Source of the DNA: an uncultured delta proteobacterium
GTDB lineage: Bacteria > Desulfobacterota > Zymogenia > Zymogenales > Zymogenaceae
Assembly (NCBI GenBank): GCA_963735595.1
Contig: CAVTLK010000001.1
Location: forward strand, 416,001-480,000
Direction of reading: 5' to 3'
Length of the DNA stretch: 64,000 nucleotides
Shown: one piece after another, positions 46,181 through 57,090 of the stretch
Numbering within the stretch: position 1 is the stretch's first letter
How the letters are laid out: every line of letters starts with the position of its first letter
Made by a program: the position numbers and the translations under genes
The notes under the pieces: model-generated
Told to the model about the DNA's origin: nothing
The model's input: only the letters and a program-made list of their open reading frames with translations
Databases searched by the model: none

Positions 46181-48494
46181 ATGACGAGCGCACAACCGCA
46201 GCGACACGCCTATATATCGGCCGTTACGCTGGGCGGCATATCCATAGCCGGCCAGATTGTGCTCATGCGGGAGATCATGATCCTCTTCTACGGCAATGAG
46301 CTGTCGGCCGGCGTCTGTCTCTTTTCATGGCTCCTCTGGACTTCGGCGGGGGCCTTCATAGGCACCGCTCTCACTAAACGTAACATCACCGGTCCAAGAG
46401 CCCTCCCCGCCCTGCTTGCGGCCGTTGCCGTGCTGCTTCCGGCAACCGTCGTCCTCTGCGCGTGTCGCAAAGACGATCGTCGGAATATCCCAGAGTGAGA
46501 TCATCGGCATCGTCCCGATGGCGGCTATTGCCGCGGTCGTCCTTTTGCCCTTCTGTTTCTTCTCTGGTCTGCTCTTCCCCCTGCTCATACGGACAGCCGT
46601 CCCCGACAGCCGGAACGACCGTGATGCCCCTGCCCGCATATACCTGTTCGAGTCCATCGGCTCATCACTCTTCGGAGTCATTACCGCCCTTGTCCTCATC
46701 CGGCATTTTGACGCCCTGACGGTCGCGTTTTTTGTCGCCGCCATTGCCGGCCTGGCGGCACTGTACATCTCGGTTTCCACCCGCCGCCCCGCGGCGGCCG
46801 TACTATCGGTCCTCGTCGTCTCTCTTTTCGTCCTTCAGCCCCTGTTTTCTATTCCCGACATCGCCGCGATCACCCGGCAGCTCCAGTGGAAGGGCTTCAC
46901 GGTGGTCGAATCGACCGATTCCGTTTACGGAAACCTCACCGTGACGCGGGCCGAAAGCCAGACCACTGTGTATGACAGCGGGGTACTTTCGTTTACCTAC
47001 CCGGACGTCATGAACAGCGAGCTCGGCGTGATCTATCCCCTCCTCCTTCACCCCCGGCCCGTGAGGGTGCTCCTTGTGGGCGGCGGGATATCCTCGACAC
47101 TCTCACAGATACTCAAGCACCCCTCGATTTCGGCAATCGATTACGTGGAGCTTGACCCCGCCCTCATCGACCTCGGTGTAAGAAACCTCCCCTCCGAGGC
47201 GACCCGCCCGCTGTCGGACCGCCGGGTTCGGGTCATCCACGAGGATGGACGTCTCTTCATAAGGGAGGCCCGTGATCGGTACGACGTAATCATCGTCAAC
47301 ATGGCCGACCCCGTCAACGCGCGCATAAACCGCTACTTTACGCGGGAATTCTTCCGCGAGGCGAAACGGATCCTTGCCCCCGGCGGCGTCTTCTCTATCT
47401 CGGTAGGCTCATCGGAGGAGATTATCAGCCCGGTGCTCGCCTCCTTCCTCGGGAGCGTCTCCCGGACGCTGTCGTCGGACTTTTCCCATACGGCGGTCGT
47501 GCCCGGGGGCACCGCGTTCTTCGTGGCGTCCGACCTCCCGTCCCGGGTGGACATCGACCCCGCGGTACTCGCCGCCCGTATGAAGGATCGCGATATCGTA
47601 AACAGCTACGTCACCGAGCAGTATCTCCTTTATCAGCTGAGCGACGAGCGGATTGAGTACGTTCGCCGAAGTATTGAAGGCGCGAAAACGGCGGGGAACA
47701 ACACGGACCTCACTCCCACGGTCTACTACTACAATATGGTGCTCAGGAGCTACTGGCTCTCACCCGGGCTGAAGATCGCCCTTGCCGACTTCGCCGGATC
47801 ACGGCCGGTCCTACCGATCACGGCGATTATCCTGGCGGCGGTCGTCTGCGGCGCTCTTATCAGAATCCGCGCCCGGAAACCGGCCTCGCTACCGGCGGCA
47901 ACCGTCGTTCCCGCGGCGTTGACCTCCGGCTTTTCCGAGATCGCGATTACCGTCGTTATCATCATCGCGTTCCAGACCTTCCGCGGCTACGTCTATTCGG
48001 GCCTCGGCCTGATCATCTCATCGTTCATGATCGGCCTTGCCATAGGAACCGGGGCCGCCCGCTCCCGGATAGGCATATTCGCCCGCCCCTGGCGGCTCCT
48101 TGGTATCGTCCAGTTGCTCTACGGCGCGTTGTGCCTGTCGATTGTCGGCGTCCTCTTCTTCTTTTCGACGTACGGATCGGGGGGATGGCCCTGGGGACCT
48201 GCCGCCGTCTTTTCACTGCTGAACATGCTCTGCGGGATACTCGCCGGTTTTCACTACGTTACCGCGGTGCGATCTCTTGTCGTCTCGGGCCTTACGGCCG
48301 ACGCGGGGGGGTGGGTCTACGGGATGAACCTTGCGGGCGCGGCGGGAGGGGCAATTCTCGCCTCGGTGGTCATGATACCGCTGTGGGGATTGGTCACGAC
48401 CCTGCTGCTGGTGCTGGCGGCAAACCTGTGCGCTGCGGCGGTTGTCGGAATCGGGGCAGGATATATCGGCGAGAATAACACACGGCGCAGATAG
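46181..48494 (+). CDS. polytopic membrane protein with central spermidine-synthase-like SAM-binding domain (frameshift near 46470)
   Basis: QIVLMRE...FYGNEL, YLFESIGS, SVYGNL, VLLVGGG, VELDP, EDGRLFI, YFTREFF, LAPGG. TM bundles at both ends. Confidence 0.82.
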
Positions 48495-48531
48495 AACCAG
48501 CGCCGTCCTCGAAAGAGACGATCATCCATTC

Positions 48532-49757
48532 TCAGACGCCCTTCGGCGCCTCCCATATCCCCGCGATCGGGTATCCGCAAAACGAGCACTTCCCTTTCTT
48601 GATCTTTACCTCTCCCACGAAGTACCCCATACGAAAGATTAGCGTCTTCCCGCACGTGGGGCAGTAGGTGGACTCGTATTTATGGCCCGGGACGTTGCCG
48701 ACGTAGACGTATTCGAGGCCGGCCTTTCGGGCGGCGGTATGCGCGGCTTCAAGCGTCTCTACCGGCGTGCTCGGGAGGTTGGTGAGCCGATACATCGGGG
48801 TGAACCGGGAAAAATGGAGCGGCGTCTCTTTGCCGACCTTATCCCTGATCCACTCGCACATCCTGGTGATCGTCGGGAGGTCGTCGTTCCTGGTGGGAAC
48901 GATCAGCGTCGTGATCTCCACGTGGACGCCCGCCTTCTTGTATCCCGCGATCGAGTCGAGCACCGGTTTAAGCCTGCCATCGGTCATCGATGAGTAATAG
49001 TCCTCGGTAAACCCCTTGAGGTCGATGTTGGCCGCCGTCAGGTATTTGGAAAGCTCGGCCCGCGGCCCGGGGTTGATATACCCGTTTGAATGCATGACGT
49101 TGATCAAGCCCGGCCTTCTTGACGGCCCTGGCGCAGTCCAGCATGTATTCGTAGAAAATCGTCGGCTCCACGTAGGTGTAGGCGACGCTCGCGGATCTCG
49201 ATGATTCGTGCCTCCCGTGCCAGCGCCGCCGGGCTAAGCCGGTAATTATCGGTGTTTTCCGGCCGGGCCTGGGAGATGTCGTAGTTCTGGCAGAATTTGC
49301 AGGTGAGGTTGCAGCCGGCGGTGGCGATGGAATATGACGTCGTTCCGGGAAGGCAGTGAAAGAACGGCTTTTTCTCTATGGGGTCGACGTGGATCGCGCA
49401 GGGGTTGCCCCATACGAGGCTGTAGTATTTCCCCTTCCTGTTCTCCCTGACCTCGCAGTATCCCCGTTTGCCGTCGGCCACCGTGCATCCCCGGGGACAC
49501 AGGAGGCACATTACCGTTCCATCGCCCAGCGGGGTATACAAGGGGGACTCCTTCGGTACCATGTAACCCCGTTCGGGATACCCCATTTCGTCGCTGCCGT
49601 CGGACGTTCCGATCGGCTCGGCACAGGCGGAAAGCGGCAGGCCCGCGGCGCAATACCCCAGGGCGCACGCGGATGCCCCCGTCAGGAATTCCCGCCGGGA
49701 AAGCCCCCCCGCATTTCTACCGACTACTTTTCTCTTACCCTCACCTGCCCCGTCCAC
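48532..49757 (-). CDS. amrS: AmmeMemoRadiSam system radical SAM enzyme with Tat signal (frameshifts near 49200 and 49105)
   Basis: CLLCPRGC, VDPIEKKPFFH, GCNLTCKFCQN, NIDLKGF, LHFSRFTP, YVYVGNVPG, CPTC...CSFC. N-terminal SRREFL. Confidence 0.9.
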
Positions 49758-49760
49758 AGT

Positions 49761-50307
49761 CTATTCCTCCGAGAAAGCCTCCGTCGTGAAGATATAGAGT
49801 TGGGCGTCCTGCTCTTTCCAGTCGTTCGGAAGGAGACGGGCCTTCACGCAGAGATTTTCGAGGTACTCGTTGAGCGTCCACCCCTGCTGGACTGGAACCT
49901 CCGGAAGGAAGAGGCCCGAGTTGCCTCCCTTTCCGAATTACTACCCCGTGCGTCCCGACGATGATCTCGTCGACGCTCTTTATCGGTTTTAGCTCCGATA
50001 GTACCGAGACTTCGATAGTGATATCTTTGAGCTCCGCTTTCGTCACCGGGTTGTCAGAGAATCGATAGTCGTAGACTGCCCCGAGGGCACCAAGCGATAC
50101 CGTTTCGTACAGGGGATAGACCGGCTCGATATAGCCGACGCAACCTCGCAGCTCTCCATCGTTGGTGAGGGTAACGAAAGCGCCGCCGGGCCTTCGTAAG
50201 GGCGGCCGAATCGCTCTGTGAAATCGGGAACGCACTTTTCCCGACAGCTCGCACTCGATGGTCTTCCTCGCAATCGAGAGGAGTTCCTTCCTGTCGTTCG
50301 TCGTCAA
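49761..50307 (-). CDS. amrA: AmmeMemoRadiSam system protein A (AMMECR1), possibly fused to AmrB, frameshifted
   Basis: GAFVTL...LRGCVGY, IEVSVLS, GTHG. After a shift GLFLPEVPVQQGW...LCVKA...FSEE* (TAG 49761). Confidence 0.88.
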
Positions 50308-51266
50308 TCCCTCCCGGCCTCGTCCCCTTCTCCCGCCGGCGGCCCTCCCCTCCCGTAGACGACCGCCGAGATGTATCCGACGACGGCATCGGTTGTCCCG
50401 GTCTCTGTCCCGCTGTCGTCATACATTGTCACAAGGACCCCCGAGGAGCCGAGAGCACTTGCCGCGAGGAGCGCCGTCACCACCGGCCCCGCCCCGCAGG
50501 CCTCGGTCTTTCGGCCGACGACGGCGTCGTACAGCCCCTCTGCGATCGTTCTTCTCGAGGAATTTCCTGAATACGCCGTCAAGCGAGCGCGCTTCCGTGC
50601 GTGAATGGTAGTGCGACAGGTCCGACGAGGCGACGATCAGGACGCGTTTATCGCCGATCGACGCCGCGATCGCCCGCGCCAGGTCCTCGCACGAGGCGAG
50701 GCTGCAGCTGCCCATGACAATGGGGACAATCTCAAAATCACCGAGAACGACCTGAAGGAACGGGACTTCGACTTCCACCGAATGCTCCGGGAGGTGGGGA
50801 AGCCCGTTTTTAGTGATGCGATCGCCCTTCTTTACGATCGAATCGATCAGGTCGGTATCAGGGCGATACGTCGCCCAGAGGCGTACGGTACGGACCGTCG
50901 GCGTATATGGCCGAGCCGTCAAACGAATAGTGATGGCTTGGACCGATAATGATGACGGTGTCGTAGGAGGTCCCGGCCAGCGCCTTGAAACCGGCGGCTG
51001 CCGTCTGGCCGGAATAGATATACCCTGCGTGGGGAGCAATGACCGCGAGCGGCCGTCCCGGCACCCTGATTGCCGGCGCTTCGGCGAGAAAACCCGTGAT
51101 CATTGCCCGAAGGTCGTTCGGATCGCCGGGATAAAAGGAACCGGCCACCGCGGGGGCCCGGGCCCGACGTCGGACCGGATAGCTCTTCACCCGACAGGCA
51201 CGCGGGGGTAATAAAAATGAGTATCAAGAACAGGGTTAGCCGGATCGCCTTCGAGTTTCGACCCAT
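50304..51266 (-). CDS. amrB: AmmeMemoRadiSam system protein B (Memo1-like) with putative N-terminal signal, frameshifted
   Basis: VAGSFYP, APHAGYIYSG, IGPSHH, EHSVEVEVPFLQ, SSDLSHY, ACGAGP, VVGY spread over four ORFs. Confidence 0.88.
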
Positions 51267-51293
51267 AAGTCGTAATATCCCGATGGCTATCGG

Positions 51294-51512
51294 TCAATGA
51301 CAGCTGCCGCAGTTTTTCGACGTACATCCCCCGCAGCCGTCCCCCGACGACGCGGAGATAAACTTCTCGCCGCTCTTGACCGCACAGACCGACATTTCTT
51401 GTTAACCTGCTGTGGAGGCGCACTTAGGGCAGGAAATCTCGGCACTCCTGGACATTACCAGCTCCTCGAACTCGTTGCCGCATCCCCCGCAGACAAATTC
51501 AAATATCGGCAT
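51294..51512 (-). CDS. FmdB-family zinc-ribbon protein (not in ORF track, frameshifted)
   Basis: Manual translation gives MPIFEFVCGGCGNEFEELV...CPKCAS.../...MSVCAVKSGEKFISASSGDGCGGCTSKNCGSCH*. Confidence 0.8.
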
Positions 51513-51515
51513 ATG

Positions 51516-52099
51516 CTACCTCATCGACCCAGGAGCCGTCGCCCCGTTGAATCCACCAGCCTGCGCGCGCCTGATTCTGCCAGCTGTCGGCAAAGAGGCG
51601 TTCGATCTGCGGTATGGTATCGCCGCCGAGGCCGTTAGCCGACGCGATCTCCTGATAGAGGCGCCTGCGGTCGGCGTTGTCGGCGTCTACCAGTCCCCGA
51701 AGGCTGCCCGATCGCGCCGATATCCAGCCCCCCCTGGTTCCTGATCTCCAGGTACCCACGGTTGGATATCCCGATATTGCCGCCGTTATAGAAGGGCATG
51801 AGCTGCGGGAACCGTCCCTCCATGGTGGAACGAATCGCCCGTATAGCCGGCGTTGAGATATTGATATCGACCTGCGCCCATGCGCTGTCCACCAGCAGGC
51901 CGGCAAGCCTGAACGGAACGGCCAGGCGCCCCTCGGGCTTCGTGTCCGTGGCCGGCTCCGCTCCCTTCTTGTAGACGTCGTCGACGATCTCATCGGCCGC
52001 CTTCCGCACCGCTTCGGCGGGGAAATATATATTAACCGTGACGCATGCCCCGACGAGCAGCATTATCGTCAAGAGCGCGGGAATTACTTTTCTCATCAT
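51516..52099 (-). CDS. YdbL (DUF1318) family lipoprotein with YnbE-like N-terminus, frameshifted
   Basis: Lipobox VGAC followed by VTVNIYFPAEAVRKAADEIV, then NADRRRLYQEIASAN...ARAGWWIQ. Confidence 0.8.
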
Positions 52100-52195
52100 G
52101 GTCAATTCCTCCTGTGGCTCCTCTGTGGCTTTCCTTGGCTCCAGTTTGTTCCTCATAGGACCCGGATTGGCTCATGGTCGGTTCCTTATTCGGAC

Positions 52196-54832
52196 CTACC
52201 TGGTTTCAATCCTGATATCTTCGGTATCCTTTACGTTTATCCGCTCCAGCCGCCGCATCATATCGTCAAAACGGATCAGGTTGTTGGGGTTCTGATTGAT
52301 TACGTTGATGCCGGTAAGGCCGCTGCGCTTGATGAAATACTCGGTGTCGCCTTCGTGAATCATGCCCCTGAGCGTAAAATAGTCGTTCTTGAGCTCGAGG
52401 TGAATGCCGATCCCCGAATAGTTATACTCGTGGACGAATCGGTTAAGGCCCGTGCGGAGCAGCGCCCGAAAACAGGGTCGATCCCGATCCGAGGATCGTC
52501 AGCTTATCGACGAATTCGACGCTGACGCGCTTATCCACTCCCCGTCTATCGACCGTCCTGACATCTAATACAAATCGTCTCCGGCCCCCCGTAGGAGAAA
52601 ATAAGACCGGAGATTCCGCCTTCGGCGATCCCGGTGACCCTGCCCACGTCGATCGTTTGGGTCAGCGCTCCAAGGTCGATATCGGCAAACGTCACGTCAC
52701 ACCCGAGCCTTCGCCCCGCATCAAAGATATCCTGACCCCATATGTTTTCGATGCGTACCGCTCCATTAAATATTTTAGCAGTAAGGGTGCCCGAAGTAAA
52801 CAGCTTTTTTTCCTCGATCCTGACCTCCGCGAGCTCGCCGATGAGCTCCCCCTTCAGAGCGACAAGCTTTTCCTTCGGGAAGATCGCCGCGATATTGATT
52901 CCTTTCACGGCCAGCGACAGGCGCATCGTTCTGTTTTCGTCGAATATGTTTTCCCCCGAGCTCCACCGATCGTTACGGAGCCGCCGGCTGCCGAAACCAC
53001 AACGGTATCCTTCAGGGCAAAGGCGTTTTTCGTAAGCGCCGGTGATAACGTCACCGCACCGATATCGACCCCGCCCAGCATCGCGTGGGAAACGGTTACC
53101 TCTCCGAAGTCACCGGGGATAAGCTCCGGCGTTGCGTCTTTATTCGACCCGTCTGAAAGGTCGAAGGAAAACGGCATAGAAGCCGAAATCCCCTCGACCT
53201 TCGTGGAAATACCGGGGAAATCAAGGGTAGCGCCGACGATATCCAGTCTGCCCGAGACACGCGGCGCCGCAAGGTTTCCCCCTATCCTGCCCGATGAATT
53301 CAGAGAACCGGCGACGGCGCCCGTATAAAGCCAGGCGATGCGGTTCATGAAGTAGTTTCGAAAGAGGATGTCGTAGGCCGCTGCCATGTCGCGGACCTTC
53401 ATGCGGTACGAGAGATCCCCGCTCATACCGGCCCGCCCGGAATCGATATCTCCGAAAATATCCGCCGAGAGGACCGAGGGTATCGATACCTCGCCCGTAA
53501 AGTTCTTGACGCCCCCGTCGTCTTTCAGCCGGCCCGATGCCTTGAGGGAGATCCGGTGCTTTTCGAAATTGACGAAGAGGCCCGAGAGGAGGAGCCCGAA
53601 ATCATGGGCGGTGAGCTCGCCGTTAAAAAAGAATCCCTCCCTGATATCGTCCCTGAACTGAATCCGCGCCGACCCGGTAATACCCTGACCCAGGTAGCCG
53701 GAATCGGGAGACGAAAATCCGGCATTGACGAGATCGACCTCGAGATTGCCGGCAATGCTCCTGTCACCCGCATCGACAGTCCCCATCGTCAGGAGGCTTT
53801 TCGCCCGCCCCGTGATCCCCCAACCGGCAAGGAATTCGGGCATATAGTCCCCGAGGCGGCGGAGGTTCGCAGACGAGAGCATCAGCGAATCCGCCTCCGA
53901 CGTAACCTTCCATTCCCCGTTCTTCTCGACCGCTAAGATTCAGCAATACGTCCCCGAAACCGGGGCACCGAGAGCGCCGCGTCTCTCAGTATAAAGGCGC
54001 CGTCGTTTTCTTTCTCCATCTCGCCCGTGGCCGTGATCCCGTCCAGCATAAGGCCGCGCCCCTCCGCGGCAATCGAGAGGCCGTCGATCGAGATGTCCGT
54101 CGCTTCGACGGTATCACGGTTAAACCGTATGTGCGCCGTAACGTGTTTGCCCGCGAATAGAAAATCTCCGATCCGATACCCCGACTCTCCCATCCTGACC
54201 GCCCCCCGGGCCGAAACGTCCGGATAGGTTCCCGCAACACGCATCCGGCCGTAAAACGGCCCGTCGAGCATCGAGCCCTCGTTTATCCCTTCCGTCCGCG
54301 CCGATCCGGCAATCGTGAGGGACTCGCCCACGATGCCGTGTTCATAGCTCATATCCACGCCCTGGAAGATGTAGCGCCCTGACGTGTCGATCAGGACAAG
54401 CTCGCCGTTTTCGACGGTGATATCCAGCTCCATAATCCTCTGGATGAGACGATCCCCGTCGCCTCCACCTTCCCGTGACACATCCAGAGATATCGAGGGA
54501 TTATGAACGGTGATTTTTTTTATTCTCAGGGGAGTGGTCAGGCCGAGGCCGAACTCCAGTACCGCCGGGCCGGATGAAAAGACGACCGGGCCGGTCACCA
54601 GGTCCATCCCTTCCACGATTACCGCGCCGGGAGAGACCAGCCGTATCCCGGTTAGATACACCCGGTAGCCGACGGTTCGTTCGACGACACGCCCGACCGC
54701 ATCGCCGATCAGTTCGTCTCCGAAATAGTAGTAGAAGACCGATATCGCCGTTAGCGACCCGAAGAAAACGGTCAGGCAGCAGATCCAGATGATCCGGGCG
54801 AGGCGGGTCTTTTTCCATAGCCTCTTGGACAT
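52196..54832 (-). CDS. YdbH/AsmA-like intermembrane (lipid-bridge) protein, multiple frameshifts
   Basis: N-terminal TM anchor, long beta-rich body, IDLGALTQTIDVGRVTG, C-terminal EYNYSGIGIHLELKNDYFTLRG...INVINQNPNNLIRFDDMMRRLERI. Adjacent to ydbL. Confidence 0.7.
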
Positions 54833-55002
54833 GCGCCTTCGTTTCCCTTTTGATCGCCGGTTACGGGTCTTTCAATATCAGGATAAGCCGTGTCCGTCTT
54901 GGTTCGTGTGACGAAAATCACAGCATAGCGGGGACTTCTTTTGTATCATAATAGTATCGAATCATGTACGATAGCGTAATCAACGGCATACGGGGAAAAG
55001 CC

Positions 55003-55266
55003 ATGAAAAAGACGATCATGATTCTTGTGTTTCTTGCCCTTTCCGCGACGTTGCTGGGATGCATCGGGTACGGCGTCATCACCCATGGCGGATACGCGGT
55101 CTACCTAACCGACGGCTCCGAATACCATAACGTCTTGTGGTACAAGAGCAGGACTGAAGGTGTGGCCCTATCGGAGCATCCCACCGGGACGGTCATGTTC
55201 CTGACCCAGGACTACGGCCTTGTTGAGGTGCCATGGGCCAACGTGGTGAAAATCCAGACCGAATAA
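55003..55266 (+). CDS. small lipoprotein
   Basis: MKKTIMILVFLALSATLLGC lipobox. Confidence 0.7.
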   Translation: MKKTIMILVFLALSATLLGCIGYGVITHGGYAVYLTDGSEYHNVLWYKSRTEGVALSEHPTGTVMFLTQDYGLVEVPWANVVKIQTE

Positions 55267-55350: not shown

Positions 55351-57090
55351 CTACTTCGCCGCCTGAGTGATGACGCCTGAGACGAACCGACCGTCGAGCG
55401 CGTCTCTATCGGGCACGTGCGTCATTTCGCGGACAAAATCTGCAAGGGTATCGCTGACGAATTTTACGGACGCGCCTCTGATTCTATCGTCGCCGCATTC
55501 GGGCATTCGCCCGACGAATGCCTCAACGTGCCGGATAATCGTACCGGAAATTCCCGGGTTTTCGCGCACCATATCATAAAAACGGCCCAGCTCTTCATCC
55601 GAAAGCGGGACGACCTCCCATTCACCCCCAAGACACCCCCGCACACACGCCGTCATAAAGATATGTTCAAGTCCCCAGCCATGGGTTTTCGCGTTGCCTA
55701 TCAGCCACGGCCTGATATCTTCGGGGATGTTCACGATCTCACGGATGAGATGGACCCGGGCCGAGAGCTCCGTCATGAAGCCCGCGGACGCCGTCAGGTC
55801 GGCGATCGATCTGAAATTTCTATAGCTATGCGCGCCGCCGGAGATCGCCTCATAGAAAAGGGGTTTTCCGGCCAAAAGGCCCTCGACAACACTGCGGGCG
55901 AAATCCCCCCAGAAGACCGGCTCGATGATCGACGAGAGTTCCCTCACGAGAACCTCGTTTCGTTTTCTTTCGGCCAGCGCCAGCGTATAACCCAGCCGAA
56001 ACAGCTCCACCAGATAGACATCCCGGATCGTCTGCTTTGCTTCATCGTAGTGCGCCGCCCCCGTGAGGTACTCCAAACCGAGATTGATATAGTCCCTGGT
56101 CATTTGCGCAGATGATACCAACTCCTCCACGTCAGAAAGGTCCATCCCCGAGGCCGCCACGACCTTATGTACCAGGTACGAAAGCTCCCACAGCAGGTGA
56201 GCGGCGCGGTCGTCGTCGGCCACCTCTCCCATGAGATCCTCGAAGAAACCGCCGGTCTTTCTGGGTATGAGCCAGTAATGGGGGGGGAGTTGGTCGGTCT
56301 GACGGTCGTCAAGGTAAATGACTTTGGACGACATTGAGCGGATCGTTTCGACGATTTTGGCCGGGTCTTCAAACAGGAAGAGATCCCGCGCCTCGCTCAG
56401 CTCCGGAAAGCCGATCATCGACATGCGGGACGATCTGAGCCGGTAGGCGTCTTCTTCCATAGGAGAGGGCAGCTCTCCGATCACCCCTTCCATGATAACG
56501 CGGTAATAGTCGGGCTCGTGCTCAAAAAAACCCATGAGGAGATTTGAGACGAGGTCGAAGTCCAGTTCCTCATCTATCGGCCTGAAATAGTAGAGATTGT
56601 CGAAGCTGAACCATCCGCCGTCGGTAAATTCGAGCGGGTCTTGATCGAGGTTCCTGGGCACTGCCTCGATGATCCCCTTAAAGAAGAGTATCACGAGCGG
56701 CTCATCGAGCATAAAGAGGCTCTTGGTAAGGACCCGCTCCCCGCCTTCCGCAAGAAGCTGGAGCCATTCCATGAACTTGCCGAAGTCTATCCGATCCCGC
56801 TTCCAGATATCCATATCCAGGAGCTGGACGATCTTCTCCGGGGCCGACATTTCGAGAATAATGGCCGCATCCGTGCCCCACGATTCCTTCACCGTAAGAT
56901 ATATCTCCTGCGGAGAGAGCTTTTTCAGGAGCTTGAGCGGATCGGGAGACGAGATTATGAGATTGGCCTTTGTCCTGACGGGCGATCTCTGGATAAGGCG
57001 GAGGCGATCCTCAAACGAGAGGGCCGTAAGTTCGCGCTCCGTCAGGCGCTCGCCGGCGAGCGTCCGATCGAGGAGGTTGTCTAAGGCCAT
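55351..57090 (-). CDS. DUF6178-like conserved hypothetical protein
   Basis: LSPQEIYLTVKE...LLDMDIWKRD...EEDAYRLRSSRMSMIGFP...LFRLGY pattern, recalled from deltaproteobacterial proteins. Confidence 0.7.
   Translation of the reverse strand: MALDNLLDRTLAGERLTERELTALSFEDRLRLIQRSPVRTKANLIISSPDPLKLLKKLSPQEIYLTVKESWGTDAAIILEMSAPEKIVQLLDMDIWKRDRIDFGKFMEWLQLLAEGGERVLTKSLFMLDEPLVILFFKGIIEAVPRNLDQDPLEFTDGGWFSFDNLYYFRPIDEELDFDLVSNLLMGFFEHEPDYYRVIMEGVIGELPSPMEEDAYRLRSSRMSMIGFPELSEARDLFLFEDPAKIVETIRSMSSKVIYLDDRQTDQLPPHYWLIPRKTGGFFEDLMGEVADDDRAAHLLWELSYLVHKVVAASGMDLSDVEELVSSAQMTRDYINLGLEYLTGAAHYDEAKQTIRDVYLVELFRLGYTLALAERKRNEVLVRELSSIIEPVFWGDFARSVVEGLLAGKPLFYEAISGGAHSYRNFRSIADLTASAGFMTELSARVHLIREIVNIPEDIRPWLIGNAKTHGWGLEHIFMTACVRGCLGGEWEVVPLSDEELGRFYDMVRENPGISGTIIRHVEAFVGRMPECGDDRIRGASVKFVSDTLADFVREMTHVPDRDALDGRFVSGVITQAAK

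Follow-up and report, generated by a model that had tools for sequence, protein, structure and literature searches.

Gene Content of the Locus

The window, i.e., the whole 64,000-nucleotide stretch analyzed here (G000:C1:416001-480000; G000 is the source genome of five contigs, and G and L labels denote compared genomes and loci), harbors on its minus strand a gene run of the AmmeMemoRadiSam type, comprising the radical S-adenosylmethionine (SAM) enzyme AmrS and the Memo (AmrB) and AMMECR1 (AmrA) domains, which converges with a plus-strand gene encoding a polytopic membrane protein. The closest named relatives of its DNA were uncultured delta proteobacteria and a Candidatus Zymogenaceae bin. 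Family searches returned TIGR04337 for AmrS, TIGR04336 for AmrB, TIGR04335 for AmrA, TIGR02605 for an FmdB-type zinc ribbon, and DUF1318 (YdbL), while the membrane protein, named SpeM here, matched PF01564 and NF037959; the gene identities given in an initial annotation of this DNA therefore hold. The convergence of the SpeM gene and amrS over 37 bp, also noted there, can be read directly from the gene ends (48494/48532).

Nearly all genes of the run are frameshifted in the window. An alignment with the related locus L018 (91% identical) revealed many single-base insertions or deletions (indels) in the window, and those at 46458, 49927, 50545, 50861, and 51165 were not present in related-strain contigs. 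Separate amrB and amrA genes were rejected, as the relatives L018-L021 display a single open reading frame (ORF) of 499-508 aa with signal, Memo, and AMMECR1 parts. From the tight minus-strand packing described previously, the 96-, 27-, and 3-bp gaps stood, while the -4 overlap of amrB and amrA turned out to be an indel artifact, because L018-L021 have one fused amrB-amrA ORF.

In L018, all three domains scored above their cut-offs: 364 vs. 220 bits for AmrS, which reached 194, 117, and 25 bits in pieces in the window, 268.8 vs. 26 bits for AmrB, and 147.9 vs. 99 bits for AmrA. CxxxCxxC was found in all 96 long AmrS, and the Memo and AMMECR1 motifs, including the Memo His motifs, are kept as well (PHAG 59/59, EHSxE 58/59, SSDxxH 58/59, RGChG 59/59; DxRa is also kept). 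On these features, the module is assigned to the AmmeMemoRadiSam system.

Export Signals of AmrS and AmrBA

Export signals were judged by motif and hydropathy. AmrS starts with S-R-R-E-F-L, followed by a modest hydrophobic stretch (h-region 1.51) and an AxA or lipobox-like end. With a conserved S/T-R-R-x-F-L, an h-region, a cleavage or lipobox site, and a TatC gene present in G000, it shows the features of a predicted substrate of twin-arginine translocation (Tat). After removal of seven duplicate loci, a Tat-type motif (K-R and R-K variants counted) was detected on 69 of the 75 AmrS in SpeM-containing loci; the background was 13 of 4571 G000 frames of at least 200 aa, judged on their first 100 aa. 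The leaders are otherwise divergent, with RR and F as the conserved positions (alignment A2), so the Tat signal ascribed to AmrS from the window appears to be conserved in relatives. AmrS sampled irrespective of SpeM include signal-less members, and G000 itself carries two further AmrS plus AmrB and AmrA genes elsewhere whose starts revealed no signal. In a quick tree of 80 rows, which left out one G000 control row, the Tat label needed 3 changes, compared to 13.2 in shuffles.

Some loci showed unusual arrangements. A Tat motif is carried by a separate ORF of 57 aa (L110:8260-8430) beside a leaderless exported-clade AmrS, and a 91-aa membrane-anchored ORF (L177:4640-4912) adjoins another such AmrS; either could be an N-terminal portion that has become detached and serves to export the enzyme. 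L181, L191, and L192 display a signal-like AmrA alone, without Memo, before SpeM and AmrS, together with T-R-K-E-F variants of the Tat motif.

The fused AmrB-AmrA protein (AmrBA) of the window reaches a hydropathy of 2.8 over 12 aa at its N-terminus, and homologous N-termini occur in other loci. Among 60 AmrB of SpeM loci with a visible N-terminus, the N-terminal extension passes the hydropathy rule in 59, and fusion to AmrA is seen in 58, in line with the Sec-type signal that had been suspected for AmrB and is now predicted mostly for an AmrBA fusion. Control AmrB of relatives, readable at 26 of 30 loci, comprised 8 fused forms with a signal and 18 without one, 3 of the latter being long or fused forms. 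On another contig of the source genome, a 615-aa ORF (G000:C5:205932-207776, plus strand; L015) starts in a Tat-like manner (T-R-R-T-F-V) and matches AMMECR1 weakly (PF01871, 28.7 bits); it is a second AMMECR1-type protein, apparently exported.

The Membrane Protein SpeM

SpeM is intact in L018, with a length of 770 aa. Hydropathy of an alignment of 97 of 120 listed homologues (at least 120 exist) suggested about 14 transmembrane helices, arranged as seven, a SAM-type domain, and another seven; 15 segments were obtained at first, and a weak, loop-like one (98-116, H 1.21) was discarded. The Lys/Arg bias of the loops in both halves is predicted to place the soluble domain outside, with a clean alternation in the C-terminal half (4.4, 0.7, 3.9, 0.6, 2.6) and a less clean one in the N-terminal half. 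A 6+6 repeat was revealed between residues 8-200 and 572-765 (HHalign 98.3%, E 2e-14, 181 columns); no 3+3 repeat was detected in SpeM.

The best PDB matches of SpeM are aminopropyltransferases, with METTL13 matched weakly (E 5.5e-6). At the last position of GGGD, the 95 listed of the 97 rows showed I 54, V 23, L 13, A 3, and gap 2 times and never Asp, and the position equivalent to D173 is Asn in 64 and Asp in 6 of the 97. The YVELD and DGR motifs for ribose and adenine are nearly invariant, and an invariant N-R motif follows the DP site. SpeM scored 136 vs. 472 and 90 vs. 250 bits against the equivalog cut-offs for spermidine synthase. In 200 genomes, SpeM and class-1 SpeD occurred both/SpeM only/SpeD only/neither in 39/36/65/60 cases (odds ratio 1.0), and no PF02675 (class-1 SpeD) was found in G000. 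An aminopropyltransferase role of SpeM was rejected given the lost GGGD Asp, the scores below the equivalog cut-offs, and the missing SpeD link. Since the aspartate for decarboxylated SAM (dcSAM) is lost, the ribose and adenine motifs are kept, and there is no association with SpeD, SpeM is best read as SAM-binding rather than dcSAM-binding. The label "spermidine-synthase-like" would thus not describe its chemistry, and a precedent exists in a plant spermidine synthase, in which, according to the accessible part of the report, D103I abolished aminopropyl transfer and conferred low methyltransferase activity (PMC3725402).

Co-Occurrence of SpeM and Exported AmrS

In 200 Desulfobacterota genomes, a strict count, which required the profile match to extend into the Tat region, found 57 genomes with both SpeM and exported AmrS, 18 with SpeM only, 6 with AmrS only, and 119 with neither. 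Follow-up of edge cases changed this to 73/4/4/119, with 8 genomes added by score (Tat-type motif in 5 and none in 2 of the 7 inspected). A second phylum, that of G207, showed 37/4/4/75 in 120 genomes at the same 480-bit cut, counted by score alone. Eleven Desulfobacterota families hold both double-positive and double-negative genomes. Among 80 metagenome SpeM loci, many of them on short contigs, an amr gene was present in 58 and DUF362 in 33, the latter mostly with Tat motifs. The survey of Tat-bearing AmrS, signal-bearing AmrB(A), and SpeM called for by the initial annotation therefore yielded a near-perfect co-occurrence of SpeM and exported AmrS in two phyla. The suggestion that the membrane SAM-fold protein is a partner agrees with this tight link, as a neighbor and genome-wide, and, as far as sequence can tell, the convergent SpeM is the true partner of the exported AmrS.

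Three of the four SpeM-only genomes (G057, G091, G122) carry, immediately behind SpeM, a gene for a Tat-bearing radical SAM enzyme from a different family, which we take to be PflX-like, and none of the three revealed an AmrB that was fused or had a signal. In the remaining genome, a signal-bearing AmrBA was seen, with AmrS in pieces at the ends of contigs. The replacement of AmrS by a second radical SAM family is the best argument that SpeM may serve a shared need for SAM. Tat-bearing enzymes of the second family were also observed next to SpeM at L134:7453-8520, L145:7556-8626, L149:7096-8190, L045:8441-9493, and L122:6350-7420; they replace AmrS or stand beside it, and contig C2 of G000 has two homologues with no leader seen.

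Candidate Electron Supply

Possible electron donors were found next to the module. In L151:8791-12402 (G148), SpeM is fused to FMN_bind and Fer4_5 in one 1204-aa ORF, and FMN_bind-Fer4_5 proteins flank the leaderless AmrS in L070, L110, and L177. In L074, L075, and L102, the vicinity of the module contains Fer4_5 membrane ferredoxins together with additional DUF362 genes. The source genome has at least seven full DUF362 matches, and at G000:C2:792772-795306 (minus strand; L197) a Tat-motif DUF362 is followed by a Fer4_5 membrane ferredoxin. We infer from these neighbors and the one fusion that membrane ferredoxin and DUF362 proteins may serve AmrS. In about 11 metagenome loci of the module (e.g., L116:12413-13051), DUF362 and the ferredoxin are accompanied by a DUF6599 protein.

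Neighboring Genes

The remaining genes of the run are listed together with the core module in Table 1. The zinc-ribbon gene holds the same position in L018-L021, L026, and G004; it is a family-level neighbor whose membership in the module is a possibility. In one relative, an AT-rich 193-aa membrane ORF without a Pfam match (L019:14777-15358) lies between zinc ribbon and amrBA. The run is flanked by a small lipoprotein-like ORF (54964-55266, plus strand) and DUF6178 (55351-57090, minus strand), both kept in relatives. A terminator and promoter scan of the region gave 6 terminator-like sites vs. 8.3 expected from shuffles, i.e., no excess; promoter and terminator sites being no commoner than in shuffles, they carry no information on co-transcription.

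Table 1. Features of the amr gene run and the convergent SpeM gene in the window.
Feature	Position	Strand	Evidence and remarks
SpeM, membrane SpeE-fold protein	46181..48494	+	NF037959 57.8 bits (cut-off 40), PF01564; frameshift near 46453-46458; core module member
amrS, putative exported-clade radical SAM enzyme	48532..49757	-	TIGR04337 in pieces; frameshifts near 49209, 49109; core member
Predicted AmrS Tat signal peptide	49620..49757	-	SRREFL at 49700-49683; end is an AxA site or L-S-A-C lipobox-like motif
Fused amrB-amrA (signal + Memo + AMMECR1)	49761..51266	-	TIGR04336/TIGR04335 pieces; several indels; core member, most loci
Predicted AmrBA Sec-type signal	51189..51266	-	Basic N-terminus, hydrophobic core; signal peptidase I or lipoprotein type
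FmdB-type zinc-ribbon gene	51294..51512	-	TIGR02605/PF09723; frameshift near 51398-51412; family-level neighbor
Lipoprotein-type N-terminus + YdbL/DUF1318	51516..52099	-	PF07027; neighbor only
AsmA/YdbH-like bridge protein, N-terminal anchor	52196..54832	-	Frameshifted; 877 aa in relatives; neighbor only

The long upstream ORF revealed no Pfam or NCBIfam match. For the intact ORF of a relative, YdbH-like PF11739 clusters of the ESM Atlas scored 0.97, behind three unnamed clusters at 0.98, so the ydbH-like label is backed by language-model features and not by a Pfam match. The gene described as a ydbL lipoprotein does have a lipoprotein-type N-terminus (V-G-A-C), but this is fused to DUF1318 in one ORF of about 193 aa. 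That N-terminal part, which we presume to be YnbE-like, gave no YnbE family match. In the phylum, many DUF1318 matches come from frames close to 200 aa in length, so the fusion may be common. With its long anchored AsmA-like ORF and, next in line, the lipoprotein-type ORF containing DUF1318, the arrangement resembles the E. coli YdbH-YnbE-YdbL intermembrane bridge (PMC11126948; bioRxiv 10.64898/2026.03.16.712125); it differs in that the lipoprotein part and YdbL form one ORF and that no functional tie to the amr module is apparent.

Of the 200 genomes, 57 have DUF1318, and exported AmrS was also present in 23 of these 57 (odds ratio 1.11, p 0.75). DUF1318 adjoins the amr module in 2 of the 23, G001 and G006, both of the window's family, and is otherwise on other contigs or 124 kb away. 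The link is also broken within the family: in G004, the order is DUF6178-zinc ribbon-amrBA-amrS, with ydbH-ydbL on another contig before a different gene. No YdbH or YdbL match was obtained in 80 metagenome and 40 genome SpeM loci by a single-sequence search of limited reach. The lipid-bridge link drawn in the initial annotation was therefore rejected; judged by gene order and co-occurrence, ydbH-ydbL is a lineage-level neighbor with its own job, in local synteny.

Proposed Mechanism and Alternative Explanations

The best reading of the module is that of a periplasm-facing AmmeMemoRadiSam branch. We consider it probable that AmrS carries a Tat and AmrBA a Sec-type signal, that their catalytic motifs are kept, that the SAM-type domain of SpeM lies outside, and that ydbH and ydbL are mere neighbors. 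With the conserved signals and intact catalytic motifs as predicted from sequence, the iron-sulfur (Fe-S) cluster of AmrS would be loaded in the cytoplasm and the enzyme exported folded, in keeping with the Tat mode, while AmrBA would leave via Sec. SpeM, with a predicted outward SAM-type and not dcSAM-type domain on a 6+6 transporter-like core, might carry SAM over the inner membrane and hand it to the exported radical SAM enzyme, a step that we find plausible while stopping just short of calling it probable. Electrons could come from the membrane ferredoxin, with or without a flavin mononucleotide (FMN)-binding domain, and from Tat-exported DUF362, as suggested by neighbors and one fusion. 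AmrS would then form the 5'-deoxyadenosyl radical, and AmrBA would, at a guess, complete the reaction at the outer face of the inner membrane, conceivably on a small molecule or lipid-soluble compound and not on RNA. The wider proposal, that SpeM is a dedicated SAM exporter which, with a ferredoxin/FMN conduit, enables periplasmic radical SAM chemistry of at least two families in several anaerobic phyla, is put forward tentatively and with some doubt.

Several observations weigh against the periplasm-facing reading. Six of the 75 SpeM-locus AmrS lack a Tat motif, one of which (L092) has a hydrophobic non-Tat leader, and some of the motifs are T-R-K variants. TIGR01409 and PF10518 did not match the AmrS of L018; they matched only a DUF362 and a small ORF. 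The AmrS of L033 and L123 belong to the cytoplasmic clade yet lie near SpeM, those of L070, L110, and L151 are of the exported clade and beside SpeM without a signal on their own ORF, and the exported clade reached only 82 in the SH-aLRT (Shimodaira-Hasegawa-like approximate likelihood ratio test) of the quick tree. The hydropathy rule wrongly passed 3 signal-less AmrB among the 26 controls, on untranslated upstream frames. Of 40 fetched Desulfobacterota SpeM loci, 24 have no nearby amr gene and 16 have one. Kin genomes are not independent, and p-values of co-occurrence overstate; moreover, most sequences in the A2 profile are AmrS adjacent to SpeM, and the counts obtained with it are among the matches listed, with 134 weaker ones outside, and may miss a few divergent exported AmrS. 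For SpeM, a PDB profile search returned SpeE-fold matches only and no transporter structure, the MFS_1 cluster of the ESM Atlas scored only 0.77, and its assignment to the major facilitator superfamily (MFS) rests on the internal repeat and NF037959.

SpeM could instead be mainly an outward SAM-dependent methyltransferase, self-supplied with SAM and in the same pathway as AmrS and AmrBA, which would be compatible with a periplasm-facing module but seems to us rather unlikely. GGG-I/V/L matches the change that, in the accessible part of PMC3725402, makes a spermidine synthase a putrescine N-methyltransferase, the weak METTL13 profile match fits, and a role in the active site is conceivable for the invariant N-R motif that follows the DP site. 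However, the D173-equivalent Asp is mostly Asn, and genomes in which exported AmrBA was not observed still pair SpeM with another Tat radical SAM enzyme, which points to a shared SAM need more than to one pathway substrate. A plain spermidine synthase whose position is unrelated to AmrS, as PF01564 and the aminopropyltransferases among the best PDB matches would have it, is scarcely credible in view of a score far under the equivalog cut-off, the lost dcSAM aspartate, the 36 of 75 SpeM genomes in which, as in G000, class-1 SpeD was not seen, and the near-perfect co-occurrence with exported AmrS.

The N-terminal peptides might also be anchors or relics, in which case catalysis would take place on the cytoplasmic face of the membrane. 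Both SAM and low-potential reductant are found in the cytoplasm, and six of the SpeM-locus AmrS have no Tat motif. Furthermore, the radical SAM enzyme of the HXS system, without a signal and proposed to be cytoplasmic, acts on a periplasmic effector, as stated in the accessible part of PMC13128918. We nonetheless regard this as improbable, given that three independent signals concur (AmrS Tat, AmrBA Sec-type, SpeM outward) and DUF362 has Tat motifs too, that RR and F are conserved in otherwise divergent leaders, and that G000 has a separate signal-less amr set. An envelope substrate of the module (lipid, glycan, or protein) is conceivable as such. As to the idea that the YdbH-YnbE-YdbL bridge receives or transports this substrate, the ydbH-ydbL-zinc ribbon-amrBA-amrS order on one strand in the window and L018-L021, the ydbL directly upstream in L026, and the chance level of terminator-like sites would agree with it; the independence over 200 genomes, the adjacency confined to the window's family, the module of G004 without ydbH/ydbL, and the negative search of SpeM loci, within its limited reach, make it very unlikely.

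Relation to Known Systems and Significance

Radical SAM enzymes are generally taken as cytoplasmic, since SAM, an Fe-S cluster, and a strong reductant are all required. Memo has reportedly been linked by Burroughs et al. 2019 to nucleotide base and isoprenoid modification. The accessible part of PMC7159879 cites that study for Memo-AMMECR1 systems. Balaji and Aravind described the association of the trio and an AMMECR1-dioxygenase fusion and proposed RNA base modification (PMC2034487, accessible part), in which the term "signal peptide" is absent. The literature searched, including this part, contained no established AmmeMemoRadiSam reaction and no exported AmmeMemoRadiSam, though Burroughs et al. 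2019 (Memo gene contexts), not covered, may mention one; searches for exported or periplasmic radical SAM enzymes or SAM export returned nothing relevant. The module differs from the known system in its putative export signals, separate AmrS clade, dedicated SAM-fold membrane partner, and Fe-S/FMN neighbors, and the proposed RNA substrate is unlikely outside the cytoplasm and hence for an exported module.

SpeM shares the SpeE fold and multi-pass membrane part of the fused MFS/spermidine synthases of NF037959, above whose cut-off it scored, and differs from them and from aminopropyltransferases in a second 6-helix block after the domain, the lost GGGD Asp, the missing SpeD link, and the link to Tat radical SAM enzymes. 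The HXS antiphage system likewise uses radical SAM chemistry for a periplasmic function, but its enzymes are without signal peptides and proposed to be cytoplasmic, with the effector alone exported (PMC13128918, accessible part).

Taken together, the module is a real and widespread variant of a known system, apparently exported and joined by a SAM-fold partner in the membrane. The predicted exported set was present in more than a third of the sampled genomes of two phyla and would, if true, extend radical SAM chemistry to the periplasm and assign a function to a large protein class labelled "spermidine synthase". Because an exported copy can hardly act on RNA, comparing the exported with the cytoplasmic copy in one organism would offer a direct route to the reaction of Memo and AMMECR1, both of which have human homologues.

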